A DNA stretch of 64,000 nt from an uncultured Holophagales bacterium (GCA_963842525.1 CAWJGT010000021.1:41187-105186); one strand, 5' to 3'. Counted from the stretch's first letter, positions 38,465-56,110 are shown. Numbers and translations: made by a program. The notes: generated by a model from the letters alone, not told the origin.

Positions 38465-38513
38465 GGATGGTTCTCCCCTGGACTTTCTCTGCTTGAGCCG
38501 TCGCGGTAAAGAT

Positions 38514-38885: not shown

Positions 38886-38887
38886 GA

Positions 38888-39124: not shown

Positions 39125-39209
39125 GGGGCTCCTCCTGTACAGAATATATACAGAACTCGCCGGCCTCGTCAATGGAGCCTGCCGCACCCCAGGCCCTTCC
39201 TCCCACCCC

Positions 39210-39510: not shown

Positions 39511-39551
39511 CATCCGCCGCAGGTCCGGCTTGCCATGCCGCAGGTCGGCCC

Positions 39552-41000
39552 TCAGGGATAGATGCCGCTGAAGGCCTGGCCTGCGCTGACGTCGTCGCCG
39601 ATGCTCGCGGTCTGCGAGAGCGGCATCGTCTCGTGGGGGAAGAAGAGGAACTTGACGAGCTTGTCCTTGTCATGCGAGCTGGTCCCATAGCCGTGGTATC
39701 GCATGGCGCTCGAGAAGCTGAAGCTGCCGATGAATTTCCAGGTGACGCCGTCCACCGACCCCCAGCCCTGGACCTGCTTGCCGCTGTTGCTGATCTGAAG
39801 CTTCACATAGCCGAGGGTGTCGTCGTCCACCGTGTCGGGCGGTGCGATGGGGACTTCCACTTTCTTCGTGTCCTTGCCTGTGGCTTCCCGGTATTGGATA
39901 CGCAGCGGCTCGGCGGCGGGGCGCACCACGGCCAGATAGGCGGCATCGTCGTCGAGCGACGCGCGGGCCATGAGAGAGCCCTTGGCCCATTCGTCGACGT
40001 GCGAGGCGGGGCTGGAGATGAAAGTGACGTAGGTGCGGTCGGCAGTGCCGGCATCGGTATAGTAGAAGAAGAAGCTGTCCTCGTCCCCCCACAGGTCCTC
40101 GGACTTGCACTGCACGCCGTAGACGACGCCGGGCTCCGTCAGATCCGGCGAGATGGAGATCTGGATCCCTTGGAACGGCCAGCCCTTGTCGTTGTCGGTC
40201 TGTGCCCACGGGTCCTCGACGGAATTGACCTTGTCCGTGGCGATCAGGTGGACCTGGCCGCTCACGGCTTTGTTCCAGTCGCTCTGGGAGTTGGCGGAGA
40301 AGACCCGGCTGACGAAGCCGCTGGAAAAGACCTGGGGTCCGAGGGAGGCGGCCTGCGACATCTGCAGGTTGAAGTAGACGACGTAGTTTTTGGCGGTGAT
40401 GTCCGAAGTCTGGGAAATCTCGGGGGCGATGAACGCCGCGCGCTGGTTGGCCATATTGCCGTTGTCGACATAGACGTTGAGCTTGTCGGTGCTGCTGCCC
40501 ACGCCGCCGCCGGTGAGCACGAAGATGAATTTGCCACGCAGGTCTTCCAGCCGCGGCCAGCCGCCGCTCACCGCCGATTGCAGGTTGTTGGACGAGGGGC
40601 TCAGGTCGCCCGGGGTGAAGACACGGTCGCGCCCCAGGGAGAGGAGCATCTGGTCGAGATTCTCGATCGTATGCGTAGCGTCGAAGTTGTCCTTGAGGTC
40701 GATGAAGATGGTCGCGACCTCGTGATCGGGCACGGCGAGCTGGAGCCCCTGGAAGACGGTCATCGCGTCGGAGAGCTTGTCGACGGTCGTGCCCGGCTCC
40801 ACGATATCGACGTGGTAGACGTACCAGTTGCCGGTCAGCTTCTCGCGCCCGGTCTTGCCGTTGTGGATGTCGATCTCCATCGACCGCAGGCGCCAGTAGA
40901 GGAACTGGTCGTAGAGCCCCTCGTCCTTGTCGTAGGAGTTGTGAGAAGACTTCTGCCGCACCTGGTTGTAGCGGATCTCTTCGTAGGGTGTGTAGACCAT
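39552..41000 (-). CDS. PI-PLC-like phosphodiesterase with C-terminal beta-sandwich domain
   Basis: YNQV..KSSHNSY, RSMEIDIH, VYH, IFIDLKD, WPRLEDLRGKFIFVL, HLIATD; RBS aggagg; no signal peptide. Confidence 0.8.
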   Translation of the reverse strand: MVYTPYEEIRYNQVRQKSSHNSYDKDEGLYDQFLYWRLRSMEIDIHNGKTGREKLTGNWYVYHVDIVEPGTTVDKLSDAMTVFQGLQLAVPDHEVATIFIDLKDNFDATHTIENLDQMLLSLGRDRVFTPGDLSPSSNNLQSAVSGGWPRLEDLRGKFIFVLTGGGVGSSTDKLNVYVDNGNMANQRAAFIAPEISQTSDITAKNYVVYFNLQMSQAASLGPQVFSSGFVSRVFSANSQSDWNKAVSGQVHLIATDKVNSVEDPWAQTDNDKGWPFQGIQISISPDLTEPGVVYGVQCKSEDLWGDEDSFFFYYTDAGTADRTYVTFISSPASHVDEWAKGSLMARASLDDDAAYLAVVRPAAEPLRIQYREATGKDTKKVEVPIAPPDTVDDDTLGYVKLQISNSGKQVQGWGSVDGVTWKFIGSFSFSSAMRYHGYGTSSHDKDKLVKFLFFPHETMPLSQTASIGDDVSAGQAFSGIYP

Positions 41001-41069
41001 GGACGATCCCTCCTGGAAAACAGCCTTGTGTCGATAGGGTGGCCCCCATGACCGCCCTCCAGAGGTGTA

Positions 41070-41324
41070 GTGGGGCGGGACGTGGAATTATCGCGCCGGT
41101 GCGGCGCCGGCGCCAGGGGTTTCACCTGCTCAGCTCTCCCTGCCTCGCAGCCGGAAGGGCGCATTGCCCGGCGAGGTGCAATCCGGGCGGCGTTGAAGGC
41201 ACGAGACTTTGCCCGCGCCCATGCCCTGGCCCAGCGCTATCTCGCCGACGAGGGCACTCCCAAGTCCCTGCGGACGGCGTTTCGCGAGATGCTGGAGGAG
41301 GATGCGCGAAGGCAGGGACAGTGA
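41070..41324 (+). CDS. Small helical hypothetical protein or gene fragment
   Basis: EGRIARRGAIRAAL..ALAQRYL..FREMLEED looks protein-like; start uncertain. Confidence 0.3.
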   Translation: MGRDVELSRRCGAGARGFTCSALPASQPEGRIARRGAIRAALKARDFARAHALAQRYLADEGTPKSLRTAFREMLEEDARRQGQ

Positions 41325-41414
41325 AATGGGCCTAGATCCGCGATTGGGCTCGCGGTGCGATTGGAGGCAGGAAGGCCCTCCCCTCCGCGAACGCTCGCGT
41401 GCTCGTATTCTGGC

Positions 41415-41654
41415 TCAGCGAAATCCGATAAAATGGTGACTCTGCCCCTCTTGCGCGATCAGAACGGCGTCCCGATCGGCGTTCCATCCCATGAAGAGGG
41501 GATCGAAGCGGATCTTCTCGCATGCCATCTGGAGATAATGAAGCTCATGGCATGAAGGGATCTGGGGCTCGGCAGCGAGCCGATCGTAGACCTGCCAGTC
41601 GGACTCGCTCTGCGCGGCGAAAGCGGAGGCCCACACTTCCCGGGAGGGCGCCAT
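41415..41654 (-). pseudogene. Possible N-terminal fragment of a HEPN-like protein
   Basis: WASAFAAQSESDWQVY...CHELHYLQMACEKI, then degenerates. Confidence 0.35.
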
Positions 41655-41786
41655 CAGGACGGCTCGGGGCGGACGAAGCGTTCGAGACGGGCAGCAGCAT
41701 CCTTGGCGTGCAGTGCGCTCATGAAAGGAGTCTACTCCGATGGCGGCTTCACCAACTGCGTCAAAAGCCCCTGAGGTGACGGAAGC

Positions 41787-42570
41787 TCAATCCCGGAGGG
41801 AGGTGAGGATCTCGACCACCGAAGCAGTGGTCGTCGCCTGGCGGAGGACGGATTTGAGGGTTTCCGACTCGTTGGAGCTCGCAAGGGCGGTCCGCAGGTC
41901 GTCGTCCACTGCGAGGCCGCGGGCAGCCAGAACCTCGACGATAGCCTCTCGGAGTCCTTGGAGCCTCTCCCTCGGCGCGGACATCCTCCAGGCTGGCATA
42001 GCCCTGGCGCTGGAGGAGATTGCGGAAGATCACCCGGCGCGCCGCCTCGCGGTCGTAGAGGGCCTCCACCGGCAGCGGATTGGCGAGGATTCCTGGCGCT
42101 TCGAGCTGCTCGCCGGGATTCGCGATGCGCACCCTCTGGCCCGGCTGGTGCACCTCCACCCGCCGCGGACCGGTCAGCCGCACCACCCAGATATGGCGGG
42201 TGCCGGCGGCGAAGAGCTCTTGGATCTTGACCTGCAGATCCGCTTCGTCCTGGCCTGTGTCGGCGTACTCGACCGCCAGGGGAGGTGCTCCCTCGGCCCA
42301 TCCCGGCTGGTCGGGGATCTCGCCGACGGAGAGATCGGGGGCGCGGAGGATTTCCGGGGACGGGGAAAAACCGACGTCGACGCCAACGTCCTGGACCGCG
42401 GGATCGCTCGCGAGCACTCCGTCTCCCACGCTCGTCGCCTTTCCTCCCCGGCGGCCCGTGGGCAGGCATTCAATGGGATGGCCGTTGGACAGCTCATAGG
42501 GGTCGCCGGAGCGAAGCTGGTCAGCACGGAAAGGGCCCTGAGATCTGGCGTGCAGCGAGTTTTTCGTCAT
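41787..42570 (-). CDS. Uma2-family restriction-endonuclease-fold protein; frameshift near 41965
   Basis: YELSNG, LRAPDLSV, PPLAVEY, AGTRHIWVV; the C-terminus LREAIVEVLAARGL is in a second frame. Confidence 0.8.
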
Positions 42571-42631
42571 AGGGCAAGTATAGCACCCGGCCCCAGGTTG
42601 TCCATAAAGGGAACACCAGGTTTGCGACTGC

Positions 42632-45600
42632 TCACCCGGCGAGAGCGAGCGCCGGGGGCGCGGCAGGGGGCGTGGCTTTTGCCGGATCCCGGCGGCGGCG
42701 GGCGATCACCTGGATGATGCCGGGGAGGATTTCCACGTGGTCGGCGATCAGCTCGTGGAGCGTCCCGCGCTCGATGGCGAGGAGGCTGGACGGCTCGACC
42801 GCCTTTGCCGAGGCGGTACGGACTCCGGTCTCGACGGCGGCGATCTCGCCCAGGAGCTCTTCCGGCCCGCTCCGGCCGACCACCTGGCCGCGGACCTCGA
42901 TCTCGATCCCGCCGGCCACGGTGATGTACAGGTTGTCGCCGGGGTCGCCAGCCTGGAAGAGCAGCTCGCCCGGACGCAGCCGGACCTCGGTGATGGCTGC
43001 GGTGAGGCGGACCAGATCGGAGGGGCGGACCTGGCCGAAGATCGGCGAGCGGCGCAGGATCTTCGCCTTCTCGAAGAGCAGCAGGGGCGGCTGGTCGCCC
43101 TCCCACCCCAGCCGGCGTTCGAGGGTTCGCAGATCCTGGGTCGGCAGCGATCCCCGCCGGCGCGCATAGAGCCCGCTGTCGAGCCTGTGGACCGCCCAGG
43201 CGGCCATCTCCCGGATCATCGGCTCCGGATGGTGGAGGACGGCGAGGAGCTCGTCGGGGACCGCGGAGGCGGGCATGTCGACCAGGGCTCCGATCGCGCA
43301 GGCGCGGGTCCAATGGTCCATGTGTGAGCTGCCCTGGTGGATGATCTCGCACAGGCGCCCCACGCGGCCGAGCTGGCGCTGCGGGAAGCAGCGCTGGAGG
43401 CGCTCGAGGAGCTGGGACGGCGGGAGCTGCTCGAACAGCGGGAAGAGGGCCTCGCGCACGTCCGGCGGGACGACCGCCTCGGCGATCTCGAACACATAGG
43501 CGTGCCCCTGGCCGGCCGGGTCGGCCAGGCTGTGGCGCATCAGCTCCACCGCCTGCGGATCGGCCACCAAGGACAGAAGCAGGAAGATCGAGTCCCAGTC
43601 CCGCTCGAGGTCGCGCGCGAGGGCCGCCACCACCTCTGCCACGGCGGGCTCGGTGCCGAGGTCGATCTGGGCCGCTGTGATCCAGGCCATGTGGCCCGCG
43701 ATGTTCTCGACCTGCTGCTTGACCACGTTGTCCTGCAGGTCGTCGGCGTGGAAGCCGCGCCGTGCGAGGGAGAGCAGCGCCTGCCGCTGGACCTTGCGGT
43801 TTGGGTAGGTGATCTTGTCGAGAAGGAGGAGGTCCGTCTGCGGCCCGGGCACCTGCTCGTAGACCCGAACGATGCGCAGGAGGGTCTGGGGGCTCTGGTC
43901 GGAGCGGCGGAACATCTCCTCCAGGGAGTTGAGCATGGGCGCGCCGATCGTCACCAGGGCTGCGGCGGCCTCGCGGCAGCACTCGCTCGCGCGGAGCTGC
44001 TCGACGACGCGCGGCCAGACAGACCGGCCGAAGGGGCTGGCCGCCGCTCGCAGGGCCTCCCGGCGGACGGCGGTGTTGGTGTCCCACAACAGGCGCGGCA
44101 GCAGCTCGGCGGCCTCCTGCTTGGACAGGCTGGCGAGCAGGGATGCCGCGAGGCGCCGCTCCTCCGCGTCCTCCGACGTGGCCAGGGCGCGGACCCGCTC
44201 GTACGTGGTGTTGACCAGGAGGGACTCCAGGGTCCGCACGGCCTGGCGCAACGCGGCCCGCACGTCGAACCGCAGCTCTGTGGCCTCGCGGCGCTGCAGC
44301 TCGGCGAGCCGGTGGAGGAGGCGCAGCCGGTCGATGCGCTCCGCGGCCTCGCGGCGCAACTCCGGGTTGTCGGACGCCAGCAGCTCGCAGAGGGCCTCCT
44401 CGTGCAGGATGGAGTCGGACTTCTCGAGGACGTTGAGCGCGTAGGCAACCTCGCCGACCGGCGCGGTATGGAGGTTGCGCCGCATCTGGTCGACGGGCGA
44501 GATGACGATCGGACGGCGGGTCCGGCGGGAGAGGAGCTGCAACAGCCGGACGCGGTATTCGCGGTGCGCCAGGAGAGTGACCGCCAGCCAGGCCACGAGG
44601 AGGAACACCAGGATCCAGATCACGCTGGCCGGACCAAACGCCGGAGGGCCGATGAGGAGCAGGGCGAGCCCCGCCAGGCCGAGGGAGACCTGCTTGACCA
44701 CCCCTTCGACTCGGGTCTGGAAGACGAACCGCTCGCTCTCGTCCACCGGCTGGAACAGGACCTTGAACGAGGGATCGAACAGCGAGCGGCGGACCACGAA
44801 CTCGATCAGCTTGGCGAGCGAGAGGAAGACGAAGAAGCTCAGGGCGGCGGTGCCCTGGACCCCCGCGCTGGCCGCCGCCAGCAGCGCGCAGAGCAGGACT
44901 CCCAACGGCAGGGACAGGAGGCCGAAGAGGAGCCCGAACTGCCGGATCAGGCGGCCGGAAAGAAACGTTTTCATCACCAGCTCGACGATCTTGGTGGCTC
45001 CCCAGAAGACGCCGAGGAAGATGGCGAGGGCCTCTTCGTTGCGGAACGTGCCGCGCGTCGCGCTGAGGAACCCGAAGTCGACGAAATAGAGGGAGAAGAC
45101 GAGGAAGACGGCGAGGAGCGACAGCAGCACGAAGTAGCGGTCGCGGAGCACGTGGGCCGGCGGGGCCTTTTCTTCCTCTACCTGGGCCGGGAGCGCGGGG
45201 CCGGCGACGGCCTCGGCCGGGAGCCTCCGCAACCCGGCGAGCACCACCAGCAGGCAGAGCGCCAGCCCTACGGCGGCGACCAGCAGGAGGTCCGAGGTGT
45301 CGCGGGAGAAGAAGGAGGAGACGAGCACGGGCACCAGGAAGAAGCCGAAGATCTCGGCCACCACCTCGCCGGAGCTGACGAGGCCGAACAGGCGCTTGCC
45401 CTGCTGCAGGTCGTAGGTGCGGCCGGCGAGGCCCCAGAAGCCGAGGTCGAGCAGCGTCAGCAGAGGATCGACGCAGATGAAGACGAGGAAGCTCATCCAC
45501 AGCGGATCGCCGAGGCCGAAGGCCAGCCGGAAGGCACAGACCGCTGCCAGGAGGAAGGTCAGGTTGCCGATCAGCAGCCGGCGGAAGGGGAGGCGGCGCT

Positions 45601-45847
45601 GGAAGAGCGAGAAGAGCCACACCACCAGCGCACCCACCACGCCCGACGCGATGTAGGCGTAAGGGAGCCAGCGCGTCGCGTAGTGGCTGAGGAACGTGGC
45701 ATTGGCAAAGGCGAAGAAGAAGGCGATGAAGATGCCGTTGCACAGCGACTGCCCCAGCAGGAACAGGGTGGGCAGACCCTCGCCCGGTCGGAGATCGAAA
45801 GTCCGGAAGAGGAAATCCTGGAGTCGGGTGCTGTGGCGGAGGTCCAT
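42632..45847 (-). CDS. NTT/TLC-like (MFS-fold) nucleotide transporter fused to HEAT repeats and a cyclic-nucleotide-binding domain
   Basis: About 12 TM helices with FWGLAGRTYDLQQGKRLFGLV and RRSLFDPSFKVLFQPV; HEAT repeats; CNB domain LFQAGDPGDNLYI..GEIAAV..RTASA. Confidence 0.85.
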   Translation of the reverse strand: MDLRHSTRLQDFLFRTFDLRPGEGLPTLFLLGQSLCNGIFIAFFFAFANATFLSHYATRWLPYAYIASGVVGALVVWLFSLFQRRLPFRRLLIGNLTFLLAAVCAFRLAFGLGDPLWMSFLVFICVDPLLTLLDLGFWGLAGRTYDLQQGKRLFGLVSSGEVVAEIFGFFLVPVLVSSFFSRDTSDLLLVAAVGLALCLLVVLAGLRRLPAEAVAGPALPAQVEEEKAPPAHVLRDRYFVLLSLLAVFLVFSLYFVDFGFLSATRGTFRNEEALAIFLGVFWGATKIVELVMKTFLSGRLIRQFGLLFGLLSLPLGVLLCALLAAASAGVQGTAALSFFVFLSLAKLIEFVVRRSLFDPSFKVLFQPVDESERFVFQTRVEGVVKQVSLGLAGLALLLIGPPAFGPASVIWILVFLLVAWLAVTLLAHREYRVRLLQLLSRRTRRPIVISPVDQMRRNLHTAPVGEVAYALNVLEKSDSILHEEALCELLASDNPELRREAAERIDRLRLLHRLAELQRREATELRFDVRAALRQAVRTLESLLVNTTYERVRALATSEDAEERRLAASLLASLSKQEAAELLPRLLWDTNTAVRREALRAAASPFGRSVWPRVVEQLRASECCREAAAALVTIGAPMLNSLEEMFRRSDQSPQTLLRIVRVYEQVPGPQTDLLLLDKITYPNRKVQRQALLSLARRGFHADDLQDNVVKQQVENIAGHMAWITAAQIDLGTEPAVAEVVAALARDLERDWDSIFLLLSLVADPQAVELMRHSLADPAGQGHAYVFEIAEAVVPPDVREALFPLFEQLPPSQLLERLQRCFPQRQLGRVGRLCEIIHQGSSHMDHWTRACAIGALVDMPASAVPDELLAVLHHPEPMIREMAAWAVHRLDSGLYARRRGSLPTQDLRTLERRLGWEGDQPPLLLFEKAKILRRSPIFGQVRPSDLVRLTAAITEVRLRPGELLFQAGDPGDNLYITVAGGIEIEVRGQVVGRSGPEELLGEIAAVETGVRTASAKAVEPSSLLAIERGTLHELIADHVEILPGIIQVIARRRRDPAKATPPAAPPALALAG

Positions 45848-45868
45848 CGCTCGCAGTCTCCCCCTCGT

Positions 45869-48529
45869 TCAGCGGCGGAACGACAGCCGCAGGAAGACGG
45901 CGCGCCCGGGCTGCGGCAGCACCCGGGCAAAGCTGACGCCGTCCGCCGGGGAGACCCCCGGATCGTCGTAGCGGGCGTCCAGCAGGTTGTTCACCACGAG
46001 CTGCAAGCGGACGCCGGGCAGGACGTTCTCGTACGCCACGGCGCCATTGACCACCAGCGACGGATCGACGCGCTCGCCGTAGGGGTCGACCGGCCGGCCG
46101 AGGCGATCGACCCACAGCTCCTGCGGCTCCCGCAGCAGGTCGAGGTTCTGGCCCGCGCGGCGCTCGCTGGCCCAGTTGCCTCGCACGTTGAAGGTCCAGC
46201 GGTCGGCGACGCGGCCGGTCAGCCCGAGGTTGACGCGGTGGTCGGCGATGTCCTCGATCCGTACGTCGACGATCGGGCGGCCCTGCTGATCCTGCAGCGG
46301 CGTGCCGTCGCTGTGCAGGGGATCGGTCCGCGGGTCGGTCCAGGTGTAGCTCGCGTCCAGGTCGAGCCGGCGGTAGCGCCATTTCGCCGCCGCCTGCACG
46401 CCGGAGATCTCCAGCGACCCGAGGTTCTGGTTCTGCAACGTGCTCGGCTGGTTCGGCCGCTCGATCTCCTTGGTGGTGACCACGTCGCTGTAGCGGGCCT
46501 GGAAGGCCGCCGCTTCCAGCGACAGCTCGGGCCGCGGCTGCCAGCCGGCGCTCACCTCCAGGTTGCGCACCCGCTCCGGAGCCAGTGCGGGGTTGGGCAG
46601 CTCCCGCAGGCCCGGCGCCGTGGCATAGCGGTTGAAATTCGACGGCGCCTTGAACGCCTCGGCATAGATCGCCTTGAGCACCCAGGAGGACGGGCTGTAG
46701 ATGAAGGCCAGCCGCGGGCTCGCCACGGTGCCGTAGCCCTCTCCCCGGTGCTGGGTGTTGTGGTCGACGCGGGAGCCCAGCACCACCTTGAAGTGGTCCC
46801 GGAGCCGGTAGGACGCCTGCGCGAAGGCACCCACGTCCAGCTCGTCGAAATATTGGGGGTCGTCGCCGGCCAGGTTGTCGGTCGTCAGCAGGTAATCTCC
46901 CTGGACCATGCTGTTGCGGGCATCGAAGCCGCCGACCACGGCGAGCCGGCTGGAGGGGCTGTAGACGAGCGTCGCCTCACCCTTGAACTGCTCGGAGAGG
47001 AGCGCATAGGAGGTCTCCTGCCAGAAGGAGGCGCGGTCCGTCGCAAGGTCGCGGAGACCGAGGCCGCCGTTTGCATAGCTCTTGAGCAGTTGCTCGCTGG
47101 TATCCCCGCCCAGCGTGTGCCGCTTGTAGCTGCTCGTGAAGCTCAAGGCGAGCCTGCGGCTCAGCTCGTTGTCGTACTTGACATAGAAGAGGCTCTGCTG
47201 GGGCACCCACAGCGTGCCGTTGTCGGCACCGGCATAGAGGCCGTCGGTGTACCAACTGCTGAACCCCTCCTCACGGCGCCAGGTCTGGAAGCCGAGCGTC
47301 AGGTTGAAGAGGTGCAGCCGGCCGCCGATCGACCAGTCGTCGGTCCTGTCCGAATACCGCGGCAGCCGTCCTTCGACCGGGATGGCGAGCGCCGCTTTGT
47401 CGAGGGCGCGGGCCCTCTCGGCGCCCGCCGGCGTGAGCTCGAAGCCGCCGCCCGCCGCCGGCCTCACATAGGGGGAGGCGCGCAGGAGCGCCTCGTCCGC
47501 CGCGGACAACGAGCCGCTCTCCGGCCCGGTGCGGAGGATGCGGGAATAGTCCAGCCCGTCGTAGAACGACGGGTCGTAGTCCCAATCGGGGAATTCCGAG
47601 AGGTCCCACTCGTCGGACTGGTAGAGGCGGGCGCTCAGCGCGAGCGAGACCTTCTTGTCGCGGCGGCGCGTCGCCAGCGTGACGTCGGCCCAGCGGGTGT
47701 CCCAGGCGCCGCCGCCGGCCGTCAGCGCGGTGGCGAAGCGGCGGCCCTCCGGGATCATCTCCTCGGTTTCGCGCGTGATCACGTTGATCACTCCGGCGAA
47801 GGCATTGGCGCCGTACAGGGTCGAGGCCGGGCCGTAGATCACCTCGATGCGGTCGACGTTGCTCAGCGGAAACTGCCGCGACAGATGCGCGGCGTTCGAC
47901 CACAGGTCGTTCTCCTCGATGCCGTCCACCAGGAACAGCGTGCGGTCGTTGCGCGAGCGGTAGCCGCGCTGGTAGAAGACCGAATAGATGTCGCCGTTGC
48001 CGCGGGAGAAATCGAAGCCCGGCAGGTCGTGGAGCACCTGCTCCAGGTCGAGGTAGCCGCGGCGTTCGATCTCCTCGGCGGTGATCACCACCACGGTGGC
48101 GGGCGCCTCGCGCAGCGACTCGGGGGTCTTCGACACCGAGGTCACCACGGCCGACGTCGGCTGCCTGTCGCGGATCTGCTGCACTCGCCGGACGAACGGC
48201 AACGGATCGTCGAAGGCCGGACGGAAAGAGGGGTTGAGCTCCAGCAGGCTGGCGATCGTCCGATCGGCCCGCTCGATCTCGTCGAGCGCCAGCCAGGCCT
48301 TGGCAAGCAGGGTGTAGGCGCCTTCCTGCTCGCTGGGCTCGAGGTCGTGCGCGCAGGGCTCGAGCCGGGAGACCACGAGCTCCAGGCGGCCGATCTCGAA
48401 ATCGGCCTGCGCGGCCTGGAGGTCGCAAGCGGTCTCCGCCCGGACAGCCTGCGGAGCGAGCCCCGGCAGGAGGAGGGCGAGGCCGAGGAGGACCGGGCTC
48501 GTGAGGCGGAACGGGGTCGGGGTCCGCAT
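45869..48529 (-). CDS. TonB-dependent receptor with a helical (TPR-like) N-terminal extension
   Basis: Start MRTPTP; signal peptide; plug VTSVSK..EAPATVVVIT, LFLVDG, RIEVIYGPASTLYGANAFAGVINVIT; NPALAPE; C-terminal NNLLD..Y..PGRAVFLRLSF. Confidence 0.95.
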   Translation of the reverse strand: MRTPTPFRLTSPVLLGLALLLPGLAPQAVRAETACDLQAAQADFEIGRLELVVSRLEPCAHDLEPSEQEGAYTLLAKAWLALDEIERADRTIASLLELNPSFRPAFDDPLPFVRRVQQIRDRQPTSAVVTSVSKTPESLREAPATVVVITAEEIERRGYLDLEQVLHDLPGFDFSRGNGDIYSVFYQRGYRSRNDRTLFLVDGIEENDLWSNAAHLSRQFPLSNVDRIEVIYGPASTLYGANAFAGVINVITRETEEMIPEGRRFATALTAGGGAWDTRWADVTLATRRRDKKVSLALSARLYQSDEWDLSEFPDWDYDPSFYDGLDYSRILRTGPESGSLSAADEALLRASPYVRPAAGGGFELTPAGAERARALDKAALAIPVEGRLPRYSDRTDDWSIGGRLHLFNLTLGFQTWRREEGFSSWYTDGLYAGADNGTLWVPQQSLFYVKYDNELSRRLALSFTSSYKRHTLGGDTSEQLLKSYANGGLGLRDLATDRASFWQETSYALLSEQFKGEATLVYSPSSRLAVVGGFDARNSMVQGDYLLTTDNLAGDDPQYFDELDVGAFAQASYRLRDHFKVVLGSRVDHNTQHRGEGYGTVASPRLAFIYSPSSWVLKAIYAEAFKAPSNFNRYATAPGLRELPNPALAPERVRNLEVSAGWQPRPELSLEAAAFQARYSDVVTTKEIERPNQPSTLQNQNLGSLEISGVQAAAKWRYRRLDLDASYTWTDPRTDPLHSDGTPLQDQQGRPIVDVRIEDIADHRVNLGLTGRVADRWTFNVRGNWASERRAGQNLDLLREPQELWVDRLGRPVDPYGERVDPSLVVNGAVAYENVLPGVRLQLVVNNLLDARYDDPGVSPADGVSFARVLPQPGRAVFLRLSFRR

Positions 48530-48534
48530 GGTCG

Positions 48535-51500
48535 TTACTTCCCTTCGGGCAGGTCGGGACAGGTTCTCTCGTAGGCGAGGCCGGCGGACATGAAACGGCC
48601 CCACTCGGCCTGGCTCAGGTTGCGGCCGACGCTCCGGCAGATGGCCTCGGCATAGGCCGCGGGGCGCGTCCAGCGGAGGCGCACCCGGCGGTCGGCGCCG
48701 CCGGAGATCAACCGCTGGCCTTCCGGCGTGAGCGCCACGGACCACACCCAGCCGCCGTTGTCCGCCAGGCGCAGCGGCTCGACGCCACGGCGGTTGACGT
48801 TCCACAGGCGGACGGTCCCGTCGAGTGCCCCCGAGGCGAGCAGGGCGGGCGGCGAGAAGGCCACGGAGCCGACCGCGGAGGCGTGGCCCGCGAGCACTGC
48901 CGGGGGAGCCGAGGGATCGGCGAGGCTCCAGAGCAGGATGGTCCCCTCCACCGTGCCCGCGGCCAGGAGCTGCCCGTTGGAGCTGAAGGCCGCCGAGCGC
49001 AAGTCGCGTCCGCTGGCGAGCACCTGCGGGGACGCGGGGAAGCTCCACAGCCGCAATCCGCTCGCGGTCGCGGCCGCCAGGCGCGAGCCGTCCGGGCTGA
49101 AGGCGAGTGAGGCGACCCGGGGGCCTGAAGGGAGCAGCACTTCGGTCACGTCGGGATTGGCGGGATGGCGCAGGAGCACTCCCCCGTCGCCGCTGCCGGA
49201 GGCCAGACGGCCGTCGGCCGCCCGGAAGGCCAGGGCACCAACGATGCCGGTATGGCCGGGCAGCGGGCGGGGCGCGCTTCCGGGCTGGGAGAGGTCGCGC
49301 AGCAGGAGCGTGCCGTCGAGCCCGCCCGCGGCGAGATACCGTCCCTGGGAGTCGAGCGCCAGCGAGCGGACGCCGCCCGGCAGCCTGGCCGCGACCTCCG
49401 GATTACCGGTTGCCTGGCGCAGATCGAGGAGGCTCACCGTGCCGTCGTCGGCGCCGGCCGCCAGGGTGCGGCCGTCGCGGGAGAGGGCCAGTGCGCGGAC
49501 CGCGTCAGACTGCGGGAAAACGGGCTCCGTGCCGGGGGCGACGCGGAGGGCTCCCTGACGGAGAGCGCCGAACACATTGGCGTCTTCGGGATCGCCGTCT
49601 TCGCGCTGGTGGATCCGCCAGGCCTGGAGGGCGAGCAGCGCGGCGAGCTGCCGCTCGTCGGCGTCCTGGAGGCGCGCGAGCTGAGCGATCAGGGAGCGGC
49701 TGAGCTGGAGCTGCCCGAGGCGCCGGGCCTCCTCGGCGGATTCCTGGGCCTGCCGGCGGAGGTCGTCGGCCCTCTCCTTCTGCTGGCTGATCTCCACCGC
49801 GGCTGCCTCCGCCTCTGCCCGCGCCTCGCGGGCCCTATCCGCCGCGGTCTCGGCCGCCGCGCGAGCGTCGTCGGCCCGGCGCTTTTCCTCCAGCGCCACG
49901 ACCGCGCTCTGGCTCGCCCGGAGGCGCTCGCTGTCCGCCACCCGCCTCTCCGCCTCGGCCGCCCGCCGCGCCCTGTTGGCCGCGATCTTTTCGCGGTCTG
50001 CGGCGCGGCGTTGCTGCTGTGCGAGGATCGTCTGGCTCTGCGCCTCGTTCGCCTTTTGCAACGCCAGCTGCGCCTGCTCCTCCGCCTTGTTGGCCGAGGC
50101 CTTGGCCTGCGACTGCCAGACCACGGCGAAGATGCCGAAGAGGAGGATGAGGAGGGCGGCCGAGCCGAGGATCACGGCCAGCCAGCGGACTTTTCGCAGC
50201 TCGCCCAGGCGCTGCAGCTCGCGCGACGCGAGGGCCAGGTCGCGCTCCCGCTCGCTATATTCCAGGAAGAGCAGGCTGCGCTCGAACGCGAGGTCGTAGC
50301 GCTGCGCCCAGAGCGCCGTCGGCTTCTGCCGGTCCCGCCAGTTGAGGGCCACCTGCAGCTCGGGGTCGCGCCACAGCCCGGCGGTCCCCTCCTGGTATTG
50401 CGTTGCGGCCTTCGACAGGCGCAGGTAGAGCTGCGCCGAGCGCGCCTCCTCGTCCACCCACTGGTGGAGCCGGGTCCAGGTCCGCATCAGGCTCTCGTGG
50501 GAGATGTCGAGGACGGTATCGGCGGTGAGCAGGACGCGCGCCGGCGGCATCAGGAAGGAGCGCCCCGGCCGGCGGAAGCGCTCGACCACGGCCACCACCT
50601 CCGTCTCGGTCGCGCCCGCCAGCTCGCAGATCTCGCCCAGCCGTGTCGGGCGGCGCACCCCGCGGGCGTCCGAGCCCTTGTCGGTCAGCGCCTTGAAAAG
50701 GGTCTCGGCGATCTCGCGCTCGCGGTCCGAGGAGAGCTCCAGGTAGGCCTTCTCGGCGTGCAGCGAGAGCGCCTCCTTCATCGTGCCGGTGGCTTCGTAG
50801 TGGCGCAGGTCCAGGGGCTCGTCCTCGCCGTGATGGCCCGACCAGTAGTCCCAGGTCCGCATCAGGGCGTGCTGGAGGATGGGGAGCTGGTCGGGGTCGT
50901 CCCCCATGTCGTTCAGGAGGCGCAGCACCAGGCGAGGCGCGACCTCGGCGCCGCCCACGGCCACCGGACCGACGATGGCGGCGCGGCGTTCCTCGCGGGT
51001 CATCCGGGGCACCAGGTACTGCCCGTCGTTGACCGCCTCGGCCAGCCCGGGGAGCTCCGTGCAGTTGCCGATGAAGTCGCTGCGCATGGTGAGGACGACG
51101 TAGATTGGAACCTCTCCCTGGCGGACCGTCTCGAGGAGAAGGCTCGCGAACGCCGTGGCCTCGTCGCGGGAGTTGCTGATCCGCGGGTTGCGCTTGAAGC
51201 GGAAGAGCTCCTCGAACTGGTCGACCAGCACCAGCAGGTTCTCGCCGGCCGGCAGGCGCGCCTGGCGCACGCACTCGATCAGCCCCCGGGTGCTGCGGTG
51301 CAGGGTGGCGTCGAGGATGGAGCGGTCGACCTGGGCCATCTCCGGGTCGCCGCCGCGGCCGAGCACCGCAGGTGCGTTGAGCGCCGTCGCCAGATTGCCG
51401 ATGGGATCGTCCCCCGGGCGGAAGATGGCGACCCGCCAGCTCGAGCCGGCCTGGACCATGAAGCCGCCGTGGAGCGACGGGATCAGCCCGGAGCGGACGA

Positions 51501-51675
51501 GCGACGACTTGCCGCTCCCCGACGTGCCCACCACCGCCAGGAACCGGGTGCGGCGCAGGCGTCCGAGCAGCTCGTCGACCTGCCGCTCGCGGCCGAAGAA
51601 CAGGTGCTCCTCCTCGGGCTCGAAGCTGCGCAGGCCGGGGAAGGGATTGAAGCCGACCGCCGTGTCGAGGATCAC
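48535..51675 (-). CDS. nSTAND1-type NTPase with TM helix, coiled coil and C-terminal WD40 repeats
   Basis: GTG start overlapping the TIR stop; NPFPGLRSF..LFFGRE, GTSGSGKSS, LVDQFEELF, LTMRSDF, DQLPILQHAL, DISHESL; TM WLAVILGSAALLILLFGIFAVVW; about 7 WD40 repeats. Confidence 0.95.
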   Translation of the reverse strand: MILDTAVGFNPFPGLRSFEPEEEHLFFGRERQVDELLGRLRRTRFLAVVGTSGSGKSSLVRSGLIPSLHGGFMVQAGSSWRVAIFRPGDDPIGNLATALNAPAVLGRGGDPEMAQVDRSILDATLHRSTRGLIECVRQARLPAGENLLVLVDQFEELFRFKRNPRISNSRDEATAFASLLLETVRQGEVPIYVVLTMRSDFIGNCTELPGLAEAVNDGQYLVPRMTREERRAAIVGPVAVGGAEVAPRLVLRLLNDMGDDPDQLPILQHALMRTWDYWSGHHGEDEPLDLRHYEATGTMKEALSLHAEKAYLELSSDREREIAETLFKALTDKGSDARGVRRPTRLGEICELAGATETEVVAVVERFRRPGRSFLMPPARVLLTADTVLDISHESLMRTWTRLHQWVDEEARSAQLYLRLSKAATQYQEGTAGLWRDPELQVALNWRDRQKPTALWAQRYDLAFERSLLFLEYSERERDLALASRELQRLGELRKVRWLAVILGSAALLILLFGIFAVVWQSQAKASANKAEEQAQLALQKANEAQSQTILAQQQRRAADREKIAANRARRAAEAERRVADSERLRASQSAVVALEEKRRADDARAAAETAADRAREARAEAEAAAVEISQQKERADDLRRQAQESAEEARRLGQLQLSRSLIAQLARLQDADERQLAALLALQAWRIHQREDGDPEDANVFGALRQGALRVAPGTEPVFPQSDAVRALALSRDGRTLAAGADDGTVSLLDLRQATGNPEVAARLPGGVRSLALDSQGRYLAAGGLDGTLLLRDLSQPGSAPRPLPGHTGIVGALAFRAADGRLASGSGDGGVLLRHPANPDVTEVLLPSGPRVASLAFSPDGSRLAAATASGLRLWSFPASPQVLASGRDLRSAAFSSNGQLLAAGTVEGTILLWSLADPSAPPAVLAGHASAVGSVAFSPPALLASGALDGTVRLWNVNRRGVEPLRLADNGGWVWSVALTPEGQRLISGGADRRVRLRWTRPAAYAEAICRSVGRNLSQAEWGRFMSAGLAYERTCPDLPEGK

Positions 51676-53159
51676 GCGAGCACCCCCACCTTGCCTTGGA
51701 GCTGTTGGAAGAACGGCGCCAGGTCCGCCGGTGAGTAGCCATCGATCTGCTGGAACACCAGGGCTTCGTGCGTGCGGAACCGCCGCTTCTGCGGGTTGTC
51801 GGGCCCGGCCACGAAGACCCCCCGCGCCCCAATCGGCCGGGTACGGCCGTAGGCGGCGCTCTTCTGCACCTCCCGCAGCTTCTGGCGCAGCCACAGCTCG
51901 CTGCCGGCGCCGTAATAGAGGAGGACGGCGTCGCAGAGGGCCAGGCTCTCCTCATGGTCCCGCCGCACCATGGCCTCATCGCCTTCGAACACCGGCAGGA
52001 TGACCTCATGGCCCAGGCCGAAGAGGTGGTCCTCCAGGGCTGCCGTCTGGTCGAGGTCGCGTTGGTCGCAGATGAGATAGATGCGTGTAGGCCCGCCATC
52101 CGCCGGCCGCTCGGGCGCCGCAGCGGCAGGCGCGAGCCGCCGGTGGAGGGCCACCTTGAAATCCTCGAGCGGCGTCTCCAGGAGGTCCGCACCGTTCTGC
52201 AGCCGGGAATCCGTCTGCAGATGCTGGAGGAAGCGCTGCTGCCGCTCGTCGCGGGTCTCCAGGCCGGGAGGGATCCAGATCAGCCGGGAGAAGCCGCCGG
52301 CGGATCCGCGCTCGATGGCCAGCTCGTGCTGGAGCGCCACGATCGACTCCGTCGCCCCCTCGGGCACCACGCCGTAGTTCTGGCCCACCATGTGGACCGA
52401 AAGGCTGCAGCGGCCGAGCTGCTCGCGTACGAACGCCTCGCACTCGGGCCCATAGAGGGGCAGGGGCCGGTCGGGCAGCACCGTCCAGCCGTGCTCCTGC
52501 AGCTCGCGCTTGACCGTATCCCGTTGGTCCTTGAGATCGAAGCTCGCCTCGGCCAGATAGACCGCCCCGCGGCTGGGGCTGGCGGGGGCCTCCCCGGCGG
52601 CGTCCTGCTTTTCGAGGATCGACAACAGGTCGGAAATATCGTGGGCGAGGTCGTCGAGCCGCGTCCAGTAGTGGCGCTGGATCTCGGGGTCGGCGATCTG
52701 CGAGAGCTCCCGCTGCCGGCCGGTCTCGGGCTCCACGACGAAGAAGTCATAGCCCAGCAGATCCTGGAGCTCCGAGGGGTGCTGCTCCAAGGGAACCGGC
52801 GTCTTGACCACCTTGAACACCCGTGCCTTGTTGGCGACACGCACGCCGCCGGTGCTCTCCGAGGCGCGATAGAACTCCTCGACCTCGCGCAGGCACCAAT
52901 CCGATTTGACGTAGCGGGGCGACAGGACCGAGACCAGCAAGGCGGTGTGGGGAAGCTTCTCGCACAGCTCGTCGGCGAAGTAGTCGTTGCCCTGGAGCTT
53001 GGGGTCGCGGAAGATCCTGGGCGGCTTGCCCAGGAGCTGGGCCAGGCGGACCTCCAGAGCGTGGTGGAAGGTCGAGATCCAGCCCTTCTGTCCCTCGGTC
53101 AACGCCTGATCGTCGATGTGGGCGTAGCTGAGGAAGACGTCGCTGTCGAATCCGTTCAT
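51672..53159 (-). CDS. Multi-TIR-fold protein (TIR + DUF4062-like + TIR-like)
   Basis: DVFLSYAH..IFRD..LSPRYVKSDWCLRE (catalytic-position Glu); second fold VYLAE..SLSVHMVGQNYG; third fold IYLICDQRD..CDAVLLYYG..W. Confidence 0.85.
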   Translation of the reverse strand: MNGFDSDVFLSYAHIDDQALTEGQKGWISTFHHALEVRLAQLLGKPPRIFRDPKLQGNDYFADELCEKLPHTALLVSVLSPRYVKSDWCLREVEEFYRASESTGGVRVANKARVFKVVKTPVPLEQHPSELQDLLGYDFFVVEPETGRQRELSQIADPEIQRHYWTRLDDLAHDISDLLSILEKQDAAGEAPASPSRGAVYLAEASFDLKDQRDTVKRELQEHGWTVLPDRPLPLYGPECEAFVREQLGRCSLSVHMVGQNYGVVPEGATESIVALQHELAIERGSAGGFSRLIWIPPGLETRDERQQRFLQHLQTDSRLQNGADLLETPLEDFKVALHRRLAPAAAAPERPADGGPTRIYLICDQRDLDQTAALEDHLFGLGHEVILPVFEGDEAMVRRDHEESLALCDAVLLYYGAGSELWLRQKLREVQKSAAYGRTRPIGARGVFVAGPDNPQKRRFRTHEALVFQQIDGYSPADLAPFFQQLQGKVGVLA

Positions 53160-53406: not shown

Positions 53407-55486
53407 CTATTCGTCGTCCTGCGGCGGAAGATCGCTCTCCGGCTCGGACCGTTTCCGCCAGCGCCGCCAGTGCAGGACGAGCGCCCAGGGAACCAGGATC
53501 CACCAGCAGACGAGGACGGCCCACAGGCCGAAGGAGGGCCGGTTGGCCAGGGTCAGGAAGGTGTTGTTGCCGAAGACATTGTCGTTGACCAGATAGGTCC
53601 AGGTGGAGGAGGGACCCCGCAGCCCTTCACGCTCCCAGTCGACGCCGTCCGCACTCCTGGAGCTCGCAGCGCTGGTGCTCGAGAAGCTGCCAGTAGGTGA
53701 GCAGCCGGGCACGGAGATCGCCGTGCTGGCCTTCGACGATGCGCTGCACGCGCGCCACCTCGCGCCGCACGGCCGGATGATCGACGGCCCGGTCCGCCTC
53801 TCCGGATTCACCGGCCGCGCGCAGTCCCTGCAGGAGCTTCGGCGGCAGCAGCCGCTCGATGCCGCAGCGTTGCAGCAGGCTGTCCTCCAGGCTGAGGATG
53901 AACCGGGACGAGCCGGGGTCGCCCTGGCGGCCGGCCCGGCCTCGCAACTGGTCGTCGATGCGCCGGCTCTCGTGGCGGTTGGTGCCGAAGATGTACAACC
54001 CGTCGAGGGCCATGACCGCCTCGCGCTGCAGCTCGCCCGCTCCCCCGAGCCGGATGTCGGTGCCGCGGCCCGCCATGTTGGTCGAGATCGTCACCGCGCC
54101 CAGGGCGCCTGCCTCGGCCACGATCTCGGCCTCCTCGGCATCGTTCCTGGCATTGAGCACGCGGCAGGCGATCCCGGCCTGGCGCAGGTCGGCGGCGAGG
54201 CCCTCCGACTCTTCGACGCTGACCGTGCCCACCAGGATCGGCCGGCCGGTGGCATGGGTGCGGGCGATCTCCTCCAGGAGGGCCCGCCGCTTCGCCTCCG
54301 TGGAGGCATAGATCACGTCGGGGTGATCGACGCGGATGCACGGCCGGTGCGGTGGGATCGGCGCGACTGTCGAGGTTGTAGACGCTGGGCCAGCTCCGGT
54401 GGCGGCGGGCCGCGCCGTGGCGGTCATGCCGCAGAGCCGCGGATACTTCCGCAGGAAGTGCTGGACGGTGATCGAGCCGAGGATCTTGCCTTCCGGCTGC
54501 GCAGCGCAATCCTTCCTTGGCCTCCAACGCCGCCTGCAGACCGTCGGGCCAGTGGCGGTTCTCGGCGACGCGGCCGGTGAGCTCGTCGACCAGCTCGATC
54601 CGGCCGTCGCGGACGATGTAATCCACGTCGCGCCGCAGCAGGGCCTCGGCGTGCAGGGCGTTGCGCACCTCGGCGAGCAACCGCACGTTCTCGCCGACAA
54701 AAAGGTTTCCAGCAGCCGAGGAGCTTTTCGGCGCGGTGCACGCCGTGCTCGGTCAGGAAGATGTTGTGCGCGTACTCGTCCGTGTCGTAGTCGCTTTCCC
54801 GCTTCGAGCCGGCGGGCGATGCCGGCCAGGCGCTCGAGGTCGACGCCCGTCTCGTCGAGCGTGCCGGCAATGACCAGGGGGATGCGTGCCTCGTCGATGA
54901 GGATCGAGTCGGCCTCGTCCACCAGGCCGAGATGGAAAGGCCGGTGCACCTGCTGGCCGCGATCGAAGCAAAGGCCGTCGCGCAGGAGGTCGAATCCAGC
55001 TTCCTTGACCGTCAAGTAGGTGACATCGCAGCCGTAGGCCCGCTGCCGCTCGGCGGTCGAGAGCCCCTCCTGGACGCAGGCGACGGTGAGCCCAAGCCGT
55101 TCGTAGATAGGCCCCATCCAGGCGGCGTCGCGGCGGGCCAGGTAGTCGTTGTAGGTGAGGACGTGCACGCCGCGGCCGGTGAGCGCGTTGAGCACCACGG
55201 GAGCGACCGCCGCCAGCGTCTTGCCCTCGCCGGTCTGCATCTCCACCAGCTTGCCCTGATGCAAGGCGATGCCGGCGAGCATCTGGACGTCATAGGGCCG
55301 TTGGCCGAGCGCCCGCCGGGCGGTCTCGCGCACCAGCGCGAAGCAGTCCGGCAGGAGAGTGTCCAGCGGTGAGCCGTCGCGGGCCTGCCGGCGCAGGTCC
55401 CCAGCCCGGTTGCCCAGCTCCTGATCGCTGGCGCGGGCAAGATCCGCCTCCCTGGCGTTGATGGCGTCCAGCTCGGAGCTCGTCAA
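53407..55486 (-). pseudogene. secA2: Accessory SecA2-like translocase ATPase with multiple frameshifts and apparent deletions
   Basis: EMQTGEGKT, TYNDYLARRDA, VDEADSILIDEARIPL, STNMAGRGTDI, QLRGRAGRQGDPG, GPSSTWTYLVND spread over at least four ORF pieces. Confidence 0.85.
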
Positions 55487-55555: not shown

Positions 55556-56110
55556 ATGATCCGTTTCAGCCGCATGGGGCTCGCCGGCGCGGCGTTGCTC
55601 GTCCTGGCGCTGCCGGCCGTTGCGCAGCGCGAGATCCAGAAGCCGCGGGACAACTGGCAGCAGCCGGGCGAGATCCAGGTGCCGAAAGGCATCCAGGCGA
55701 TCCGCGCTCAGGAGGAGCGGTGCAGCAAGCGCTTCCTGATGGTCTCGGATGCGCTCTTCGAATTCGACAAGGCCACGCTCTCGCCGGATGCCGAGGAGAC
55801 CTTGCGGGCCCTGGTCCCCCTCCTCGCCAAGGCCGGCAAGCATCCGGCGACGATCGAAGGCCATACGGATGCCAAAGGCGCCGACGCCTACAATCAGACG
55901 CTGAGCGAGGCGCGGGCCCGGACGGTCAAGGACTGGCTCGTAGCCCAGGGGGCGCTCCCCGCGACGACGCCCACCCAGGGCTGGGGCGAGCAGCGCCCGG
56001 TCGCACCCAATGCCAAGCCGGACGGCTCGGACGATGCAGCCGGGCGCCAGAAGAACCGGCGGGTCGAGGTGGTGCTCGACCTCTGCGGCCAGGCGGGCCG
56101 GGCCCGGTAG
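55556..56110 (+). CDS. OmpA-family periplasmic protein
   Basis: Signal peptide; LFEFDKATL, IEGHTD, YNQTLSEARA, NRRVEV; RBS aggagg. Confidence 0.95.
   Translation: MIRFSRMGLAGAALLVLALPAVAQREIQKPRDNWQQPGEIQVPKGIQAIRAQEERCSKRFLMVSDALFEFDKATLSPDAEETLRALVPLLAKAGKHPATIEGHTDAKGADAYNQTLSEARARTVKDWLVAQGALPATTPTQGWGEQRPVAPNAKPDGSDDAAGRQKNRRVEVVLDLCGQAGRAR

Follow-up and report, generated by a model that had tools for sequence, protein, structure and literature searches.

In TonB-dependent transducers of the FecA-FecR-FecI type, an outer-membrane receptor carries a periplasmic STN domain ahead of its plug, and the signal is relayed through an anti-sigma factor to an ECF sigma factor in the cytoplasm. 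STAND/NLR proteins, to our knowledge, have cytoplasmic sensors in every well-studied case. A cluster of four genes on the minus strand of a 64,000-nt stretch of DNA from an uncultured Holophagales bacterium (GCA_963842525.1, CAWJGT010000021.1:41187-105186; the whole stretch is called the window hereafter) bears likenesses to both. The cluster putatively encodes a protein of three tandem TIR-like domains (TIRL), a membrane-anchored nSTAND1 NTPase with WD40 repeats (STAND), a TonB-dependent receptor (TBDR) with an N-terminal extension (NTE) and a protein that joins a nucleotide-transporter-like (NTT) membrane domain to HEAT repeats and a cNMP-binding domain (gene 4). Our data suggest that this cluster is probably an envelope-spanning sensory switch; its parts are of known kinds, but its layout across the envelope and the linkage of three components seem to be novel.

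Like FecA-type receptors, the TBDR has an additional periplasmic domain on the N-terminal side of its plug, and this NTE is predicted to contact a single-pass inner-membrane protein that would relay a signal to the cytoplasm. Unlike in the FecA type, the NTE is a predicted all-helical mini-TPR domain rather than an STN domain, the inner-membrane partner is a STAND NTPase with WD40 repeats rather than an anti-sigma factor, the cluster contains no ECF sigma gene and no anti-sigma gene adjoins it, and the barrel can be swapped for that of a small outer-membrane protein (OMP). With STAND/NLR-like conflict systems (nSTAND1 of Kaur et al. 2021, PMC8195603; Avs; bNACHT) the cluster shares the nSTAND1 NTPase, C-terminal repeats and a TIR-type partner, whereas its sensor is predicted to be extracytoplasmic, beyond the transmembrane (TM) helix and apparently pre-docked on an OMP; in addition, the effector is a separate gene, the STAND clade is 45-72% identical across phyla, NTT-HEAT is co-inherited and PADLOC gives no match to a defence system. 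TIRL resembles Thoeris ThsB, Swarozyc, Avs2-NIR, Vulcan and Vesta in its canonical TIR with a Glu (domain 1) and its DUF4062-like domain 2, but differs in having three tandem TIR-like domains, in the Ala at the inferred catalytic position of domain 2 in the window, in the lack of a ThsA-like partner in the cluster and in its pairing with a membrane STAND. Relatives in other phyla, but not the cluster itself in its host genome (G000), carry SpoIIE/PP2C, STAS and HATPase_c_2 kinase genes in the gene string, as in partner switching of the RsbU/RsbV/RsbW type.

Gene 4 has exactly the architecture of the NTT-HEAT(-cNBD) fusions and falls within that family, which is described in the available part of Major, Embley and Williams (2017, PMC5381601) as monophyletic, widespread and uncharacterised, with its function reported as unknown. 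That part of the paper holds no neighbourhood analysis, whereas here a subset of the family is linked to a STAND and an OMP. A literature search returned no account of an nSTAND1 that spans a membrane and is associated with a TonB receptor or with NTT-HEAT (supplementary tables, possibly listing the clade, lay outside the search). The available text of PMC8195603, PMC7159879, 10.1101/2023.09.22.558884 and PMC13581612 contains no such STAND architecture, and that of PMC8195603 mentions no TonB receptor. An earlier note on the window had likewise known of no characterised system with this combination, and neither PADLOC nor the literature search supplied one.

The four genes are intact, co-oriented and tightly packed, in a window of ~68% G+C, and the open reading frames (ORFs) and junctions were as the earlier note had described them. 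TIRL (51672-53159, minus strand, 495 aa) is followed by STAND (48535-51675, 1046 aa), the TBDR (45869-48529, 886 aa) and gene 4 (42632-45847, 1071 aa), all on the same strand. The TGA stop of TIRL and the GTG start of STAND share the sequence GTGA at 51672-51675, a 5-nt gap (CGACC) separates the STAND TAA from the TBDR ATG, and gene 4 begins with an ATG after a 21-nt gap that follows the TBDR TGA and contains GGGGGAG. A weak consensus scan for promoters and terminators gave no minus-strand terminator-like site within the cluster. The domain families called in that note (TIR, nSTAND1/WD40, TonB receptor and TLC/HEAT/cNMP) were all matched in Pfam. G000 (9.95 Mb, 34 contigs) holds a single copy each of TIRL, the NTT-HEAT protein and this receptor type. 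The closest homologues bear Thermoanaerobaculia source names, which, like an acidobact_VWFA neighbour, indicate Acidobacteriota.

Linkage of these genes across phyla exceeds chance. We compared the best 80 of 468 loci encoding a relative of gene 4, taking one genome per species and combining gene maps with tblastn searches by the four window proteins (tblastn being used where gene calls failed, at L001, L004 and L008), with a second set anchored on STAND, the best 80 of at least 577 matches in metagenome contigs. Of the NTT-HEAT loci, 34/80 had a STAND, 18/80 a STAND and a receptor, and 20/80 a STAND and TIRL. Homologues were thus syntenic elsewhere, contrary to the outcome that the earlier note had said would refute its reading, but the exact four-family set on which it rested was confined to Acidobacteriota, occurring in the window and in 4/80 genome loci (L001, L004, L008 and L046).

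Three gene orders were distinguished with the aid of Pfam. Arrangement A, found in Ignavibacteria, Chitinophagaceae, Saprospiraceae, Chitinispirillaceae and others, runs STAND, TBDR, a 279-aa protein, NTT-HEAT and a sensor PP2C, with STAS and RsbW-like kinase genes ahead of STAND and a REC-PP2C gene at the end in some cases. Arrangement B, found in Bacteroidales, Cytophagales and one Thiohalospira metagenome-assembled genome, runs NTT-HEAT, HAMP-PP2C, TIRL, STAND, small OMP, a DOMON-like protein and a protein with no Pfam match. Arrangement C, the order TIRL, STAND, TBDR and NTT-HEAT, is that of Acidobacteriota including the window. Arrangements A and B thus carry partner-switching genes (SpoIIE/PP2C phosphatases, a STAS protein and a HATPase_c_2, RsbW-like kinase) in the same gene string. 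Three conserved proteins of these strings are not in the window: the 279-aa protein between TBDR and NTT in arrangement A (L013:9110-9949), which has no Pfam match, the DOMON-like 396-aa protein of arrangement B (L063:20774-21964), and the ~400-aa protein without a Pfam match that occurs after the small OMP in arrangement B (L066:21868-23088).

The STANDs linked to NTT fall into a single clade with short branches. Its members are 45-72% identical to the NTPase of the window and come from Acidobacteriota, Bacteroidota, Ignavibacteria, Chitinispirillaceae and Thiohalospira; nSTAND1 paralogues of G000 outside the clade have 27-35% identity to the window NTPase. The NTT-HEAT tree has the same three clades as the STAND tree, and members of these NTT-HEAT clades that lack a STAND label lie nearly all on short contigs (L032 is the exception). 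In several Bacteroidales loci, the NTT gene has topoisomerase IV and shikimate kinase genes as stable neighbours (L024, L031, L061, L063 and L065, the last of which has no downstream sequence, so that a STAND is unseen there). The arrangement B STAND was present in 35/151 genomes of the Bacteroidota order of L063, most of which have just one copy. In-frame stops, one or two per match and mostly TAA, occurred in 9/37 of these STAND match rows and 8/35 genomes (G310, G337, G351, G359, G370, G396, G414 and G430). STAND matches at L004:4037-5188 and at L042 downstream of 16764 came in pieces (to query residues ~497 and ~352) with ample flanks, and may be frameshifted or decaying copies.

Among the metagenome contigs, 47 loci with a full-length WD40-type STAND had an outer-membrane partner in 27/38 cases (by tblastn), TIRL in 20/41 and, where flanks were long on both sides, NTT-HEAT in 10/13. 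The 33 loci that matched the NTPase only had TIRL upstream in 22/25 cases, NTT-HEAT in 0/6 and an outer-membrane partner in 1/13, and bore other C-terminal domains (TPR, many WD40 repeats, malectin, GH25). Because these NTPase-only relatives keep TIRL while differing in their C-terminal domains, TIRL-STAND appears to be an older two-gene pair with variable sensors, and the NTT and outer-membrane partners appear to belong to the WD40 clade. Sister TIRL-STAND pairs (L109, L136, L142, L149, L153, L158 and L160) have one TM helix and a C-terminus of TPR, 16 WD40 repeats, malectin or GH25 muramidase type, which suggests that STAND NTPases whose sensors lie outside the cytoplasm make up a wider family.

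The NTE stays with STAND while the type of barrel varies. In a search with an NTE hidden Markov model, a gene encoding the NTE started at most 600 nt downstream of STAND in 28/28 eligible genome loci, and no genome locus without STAND gave a match; among metagenome loci the NTE gene lay within this distance in 36/44 WD40-type loci versus 0/28 NTPase-only relatives. The conserved core is thus STAND (with its TM helix, coiled coil and WD40 repeats), an NTE-bearing OMP and NTT-HEAT, with TIRL, an intact cNMP site and the PP2C/STAS/RsbW genes as lineage-specific additions.

Several features of STAND point to a protein that crosses the inner membrane. The nSTAND1 NTPase module (residues 11-430, 50386-51645, minus strand) scores 343.5 bits in Pfam, and its Walker A GxSGSGKSS (G50-S58) and Walker B DQFEE (D152-E156) are invariant across 26 STAND orthologues; NCBIfam assigned no family to the protein. 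Exactly one hydrophobic helix (residues 501-519, 50119-50175, hydropathy 2.87) occurs just after the NTPase in 26/26 genome orthologues and 75/75 gene-called metagenome relatives. Its flanks average 6.3 Lys and Arg on the N-terminal side versus 3.2 on the C-terminal side (net charge +4.0 versus +0.15), and because these charges follow the positive-inside rule, the NTPase is predicted to be cytoplasmic and the WD40 repeats periplasmic. A helical stretch of ~180 residues (~520-700, 49576-50118) lies between the TM helix and the propeller, and between residues 524 and 643 Ala recurs at every heptad position with at least 80% conservation; as an unbroken coiled coil, predicted to be periplasmic, the stretch would be long enough to cross the periplasm (estimated at 0.15 nm per residue). 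The WD40 propeller (residues ~705-1046, 48538-49563), matched in Pfam and predicted to be periplasmic, has a putative docking face that includes D744, R770, D952 and W976. A conserved C-terminal Cys pair was considered as a periplasm marker and dropped, being present in about half of the STAND orthologues. The tripartite layout of effector, NTPase and sensor in one STAND polypeptide is not found here: the NTPase starts at residue 11, which leaves no N-terminal effector domain, and TIRL is a separate, overlapping gene.

The TBDR comprises, in order, a signal peptide, an NTE of ~95 residues with two Cys (residues 32-128, 48146-48436, minus strand), a VTSVSK stretch and the plug. Pfam matched Plug at 81.1 bits (residues 139-247) and TonB_dep_Rec_b-barrel at 134.3 bits (residues 403-849), while all NCBIfam TBDR subfamilies fell below their own cut-offs. 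The conserved VTSVSK sits where a TonB box is expected, ahead of the plug, and by its likeness to BtuB-like boxes it is a candidate for one. In an AlphaFold2 (AF2) model (pLDDT 92.9) the NTE, predicted to be periplasmic, has five helices, with weak likeness to small TPR domains (Foldseek best E 0.14, TM ~0.6); the lack of a Pfam STN match, the all-helical model and these TPR-like matches rule out an STN-type signalling domain. The small OMP of arrangement B (OMP_b-brl_2, ~340 aa) starts with an NTE homologue (blastp 6.6e-10 and 1.4e-7). The barrel is thus exchangeable between TBDR and OMP_b-brl_2 and the NTE constant; in arrangement B the TBDR barrel of the four-gene set in the earlier note gives way to that of the small OMP.

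A predicted contact between the propeller and the NTE would join the two membranes. STAND residues 690-1046 and TBDR residues 32-150 were co-folded, each with its own orthologue alignment, and gave an interface score (ipSAE) of 0.78 (0.79, 0.78 and 0.77 in three runs), with the best control at 0.01; this mark was reached by 58/80 solved complexes and 2/110 mismatched pairs, a calibration that is only rough here, the alignments being our own. The runs had at least 77% of contacts in common, and partner pLDDT was at least 76. The contacts fall on the top face of the propeller and on NTE residues 46-50, 81, 83, 85 and 109-111, the most conserved ones of this domain among them, with conservation of 1.0 for G47, 1.0 for D83, 0.94 for P109 and 0.88 for F49 on the NTE side, and of 0.96 for D744, 0.88 for R770, 1.0 for D952 and 0.92 for W976 on the propeller side. 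In a joint alignment G47, D83 and D108/P109 are conserved in the small-OMP NTE too. The model supports binding of the NTE by the propeller, and, together with the single TM helix and the positive-inside charges, it bears out the suggestion of the earlier note that the proteins span the envelope from outer membrane to cytoplasm, as far as prediction goes; pairwise structure prediction was among the checks proposed there.

The domains present, the signals of topology, the synteny between phyla, the matching phylogenies and the conservation of interface residues were all observed; from them we infer a direction of signalling, a trigger and outputs as follows. The nSTAND1 NTPase would reside in the cytoplasm, anchored by one TM helix, and the Ala-heptad coiled coil of ~180 residues would carry the WD40 propeller across the periplasm, where the propeller would dock on the NTE of an outer-membrane beta-barrel, here the TBDR. 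A change at the outer membrane would alter the contact between propeller and NTE; candidate triggers are damage, an invader that exploits the receptor, or receptor movement driven by a ligand or by TonB. The altered contact would pass through the coiled coil and switch the nucleotide state or the oligomerisation of the NTPase. In the acidobacterial version the NTPase may then recruit or activate the translationally coupled TIRL, which has an intact TIR Glu, and the NTT-HEAT-cNMP protein may be regulated by the switch or may carry a nucleotide. Outputs probably differ by lineage: TIRL would serve arrangements B and C, and PP2C/STAS/RsbW arrangements A and B. It is also quite possible, and we offer it tentatively, that the cluster represents a whole family of transmembrane NLR-like receptors with extracytoplasmic sensors, of which the WD40 clade is permanently docked on the NTE through an Ala-zipper coiled coil, so that surface events would lead to oligomerisation and to NADase and/or partner-switching output, with NTT-HEAT as an obligate third membrane component that handles or senses a nucleotide.

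Several observations weigh against an envelope-spanning switch. The ipSAE value is the model's own confidence and is distinct from measured binding, and the fractions drawn from the best 80 of 468 and of at least 577 matches lean toward close relatives. NTT-HEAT was absent from 3/13 WD40-type loci with long flanks, and 8/44 WD40-type metagenome loci had no NTE gene downstream, five of which (L103, L127, L134, L143 and L153) either lack a gene call or encode STANDs 1247-2407 aa long, and may be other STAND subfamilies. TIRL occurred in 4/301 sampled genomes of the window's phylum, G000 included, and was absent from one same-family genome and eleven same-order genomes listed; this patchy distribution would suit a sensory system and, equally, an accessory one with a possible role in conflict. 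Finally, no PP2C, STAS or RsbW gene adjoins the cluster in G000, which has PP2C genes elsewhere, and this leaves the output pathway there without a candidate of that kind.

TIRL bears on the question of defence. Its AF2 model (pLDDT 86.2) has three tandem alpha/beta domains, and Foldseek matched it to the TIR domains of RUN1, RPP1, AbTir, SARM1 and SPARTA with E values down to 5e-8. Domain 1 (residues 1-185, 52605-53159, minus strand) is a canonical TIR with DVFLSYAHIDD and SDWCLRE motifs, and matched Pfam TIR_2 (PF13676) over residues 8-104 (38.2 bits versus a cut-off of 28) and NCBIfam FxsC_Nterm at an E of 3.7e-16 that lies below that family's cut-off. In a profile alignment E92 of SDWCLRE aligns with the Glu of the plant TIR WCLDEL motif, in agreement with the conserved TIR Glu of the earlier note. 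With profile, fold and WxxxE-type Glu all present, TIRL of the window is a predicted NADase-type TIR. Domain 3 (residues 359-487, 51699-52085) is a third flavodoxin/TIR-like domain that conserves CDAVL..W..K....G.GR and has no Glu at the TIR position.

Domain 2 of TIRL (residues 199-345, 52125-52565) is DUF4062/NIR-like. Pfam DUF4062 scored 17.8 bits over residues 200-277, under its cut-off of 24.7, and 32.1 bits on the TIRL orthologue of L063. A phmmer search with domain 2 alone gave no match among PDB sequences, and its profile had a weak best PDB match in the DUF4062 domain of KpSwz (E 0.024), gapless over positions 4-76. By gapless extension, and assuming that the deposited chain starts at residue 15 (a 15-C construct), the catalytic E97 of KpSwz would fall on the E of the TIRL motif S-x-x-E-x-Q. 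Under this inferred mapping the column is acidic in 15/15 Bacteroidota TIRL, is Ala275 in the window, and is acidic in only 3/9 TIRL with an intact domain 1 motif. The canonical TIR Glu motif itself is kept in 10/24 aligned TIRL sequences (among them that of the window, those of two further Acidobacteriota and six that are paired with variable-sensor STANDs) and lost in 14/24, including 14/14 from Bacteroidota. Every aligned TIRL (24/24) would then keep a candidate catalytic acid in domain 1 or 2, which in the window is that of the TIR domain.

Anti-phage abortive infection is the strongest rival to the sensory switch, and we consider it rather unlikely. It would have the membrane NLR-like sensor detect an invader that has reached the receptor or the periplasm and the TIRL NADase deplete NAD+, with the NTT-cNMP protein as a second effector or a carrier of NAD or ADPR. 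DUF4062 domains have been described as TIR-like anti-phage NADases in the available parts of two preprints (10.64898/2026.05.01.722283 and 10.64898/2026.09.04.749371). In the window the TIR fold and E92 are intact, and the acidic residue kept at a candidate catalytic position in all 24 TIRL, under the mapping above, points the same way. A third 2026 preprint (10.64898/2026.06.25.731849) reportedly describes DUF4062 as a TIR-like NADase in phage defence. The sister STANDs paired with TIRL resemble immune NLRs in that their sensors vary (TPR, WD40, malectin, GH25), and the best plasmid match of TIRL, on a Caballeronia megaplasmid, is a pair of TIR-protein and WD40-protein genes beside a DUF4231 gene. 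The TIR/NIR chemistry, the sister clade with its varied sensors and the patchy occurrence keep an anti-phage role in play as a rival, and the immune function that the earlier note had put forward is possible.

The wider genomic evidence weakens this reading. PADLOC called no system: TIRL and TBDR matched no family and STAND only mad8 (E 0.0086), which leaves as the sole match that of gene 4, through its cNMP domain only, to Pycsar effectors; ten neighbour proteins gave generic domain matches only, with no defence island around the cluster. TIRL was found in 0/50,697 phage records and 2/72,556 plasmids. Arrangement A lacks it altogether (0/14 loci), and a TIRL profile search of five whole arrangement A genomes found none in 5/5, with one weak TIR-domain match only. 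The STAND clade evolves slowly and its members occur mostly as single copies, the Bacteroidales NTT gene keeps its stable context beside topoisomerase IV and shikimate kinase genes, and the system is linked to partner-switching regulators, all of which argues against anti-phage abortive infection.

Gene 4 bears on a further rival through its membrane domain. The protein has 12 hydrophobic segments within residues 28-427 (44567-45766, minus strand), a TLC/MFS-like domain that matched Pfam TLC at 23.6 bits, marginal against the cut-off of 21, and MFS_1 at 17.9 bits. A HEAT-repeat region follows (~residues 450-930, 43058-44500, the extent being estimated from the alignment; Pfam HEAT_2 at 43.5 bits, and HEAT), and then a cNMP-binding domain (residues 955-1037, 42737-42985; Pfam cNMP_binding at 59.3 bits) with an intact GE..A...RTA phosphate-binding motif. 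Homologues carry ATP:ADP antiporter/HEAT as source names. The cNMP motif is intact in the window and L046, nearly so in L001, and degenerate in arrangements A and B and in L004 and L008; it is also intact in STAND-unlinked NTT-HEAT relatives from Chloroflexi and others. The earlier note had proposed a relay from a TIR product to the cNMP-bearing carrier, and as a conserved mechanism this does not survive the absence of TIRL from arrangement A, the loss of the TIR Glu in 14/24 sequences and the degenerate cNMP motif of A and B. In the window's own lineage such a nucleotide step is possible, because the TIR Glu and the cNMP site are both intact there.

The cluster might instead serve trans-envelope uptake or export of nucleotides or NAD, with the TBDR as outer channel, the NTT as inner carrier and STAND as an adaptor or energiser like tripartite pumps or TonB; we regard this as improbable. 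The presence of a TBDR and an NTT-like 12-TM protein in one operon would suit it, as would the single TM helix and long periplasmic coiled coil of STAND, a design shared with membrane-fusion adaptors and TonB. NTT family members carry ATP and NAD (see the available text and references of PMC5381601). On the other side, arrangement B swaps the 22-strand receptor for an OMP_b-brl_2 protein of ~340 aa with the same NTE, through which nucleotide passage is unlikely, and because a small OMP can replace the receptor a nucleotide-uptake machine is itself unlikely. STAND NTPases are switches and not motors, the TLC match is marginal, and NTT-HEAT is widespread without STAND or TBDR.

Even without STAND, an NTT-HEAT gene very often has a SpoIIE/PP2C phosphatase gene after it (many loci between L005 and L079), and Chloroflexi NTT-HEAT loci have other recurrent neighbours instead, in four protein clusters, one of them of 2700-3200 aa. 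Of 80 entries counted, 48 have a PP2C gene adjoining NTT-HEAT, which suggests that the family as a whole is tied to partner-switching regulation.

That the cluster is a chance juxtaposition of a TIR-STAND conflict pair and a TBDR/transporter nutrient pair is scarcely credible: stand-alone TIRL-STAND pairs do exist (see the NTPase-only counts above) and NTT-HEAT occurs alone in many phyla, but co-inheritance across phyla in three gene orders, agreeing STAND and NTT topologies, STAND-NTE adjacency in 28/28 and 36/44 loci with no NTE in genome loci lacking STAND, a co-fold that passes its controls, and the overlap with 5-nt and 21-nt spacing all contradict it.

If the envelope-spanning switch is real, a conserved STAND clade with a periplasmic sensor tethered to an OMP would extend NLR-type switching to cell-surface surveillance, and would add a third kind of trans-envelope signalling beside the FecA/FecR and Rcs types. 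It would also provide the first functional context for NTT-HEAT(-cNBD) proteins and for the tri-domain TIR/DUF4062 family, connecting the NTT-HEAT and TIRL families to NAD-directed enzymes and partner-switching regulators. A genetically tractable host may exist, because the module is present in 35/151 genomes of one Bacteroidota order. A sequencing-run search listed no RNA run, and one soil DNA run contained a small fraction of the words searched for.

The host genome holds 28 nSTAND1 matches in all, 24 of them above the family cut-off; several group on one contig (C9, 1.45-1.48 Mb), and a TIRL homologue accompanies none of the other nSTAND1 genes. The genes flanking the cluster (SecA-like, OmpA, VWA and Uma2) are not conserved with the system. 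Upstream, a short SecA-like gene (53627-55486, minus strand, 619 aa) has SecA_DEAD and P-loop_SecA domains, lacks the C-terminal third and is 49-51% identical to the other SecA of the genome (contig C23); with no match in 160 related loci, it was ruled out as a fifth component. Also upstream are an OmpA-family protein (55556-56110, plus strand) and an acidobact_VWFA-type VWA protein (56129-58369, minus strand, 746 aa). The downstream genes (Uma2, PIN and others) were ruled out as components since their adjacency to the cluster is not conserved.

The earlier note had described many other genes of the window as broken. Most long ORFs look intact, and fragment-like Pfam matches occur at 37-40 kb. 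The description may refer to a run of genes downstream of the cluster (37000-42600) that are small or resemble fragments. This patch includes a Uma2-family gene at 41761-42469, a PIN-domain gene at 38514-39035, an amidohydrolase-like ORF (37091-38557) with partial profile matches only, and a 113-aa ORF (39210-39551) that matches the C-terminal end of Peptidase_S41 only.

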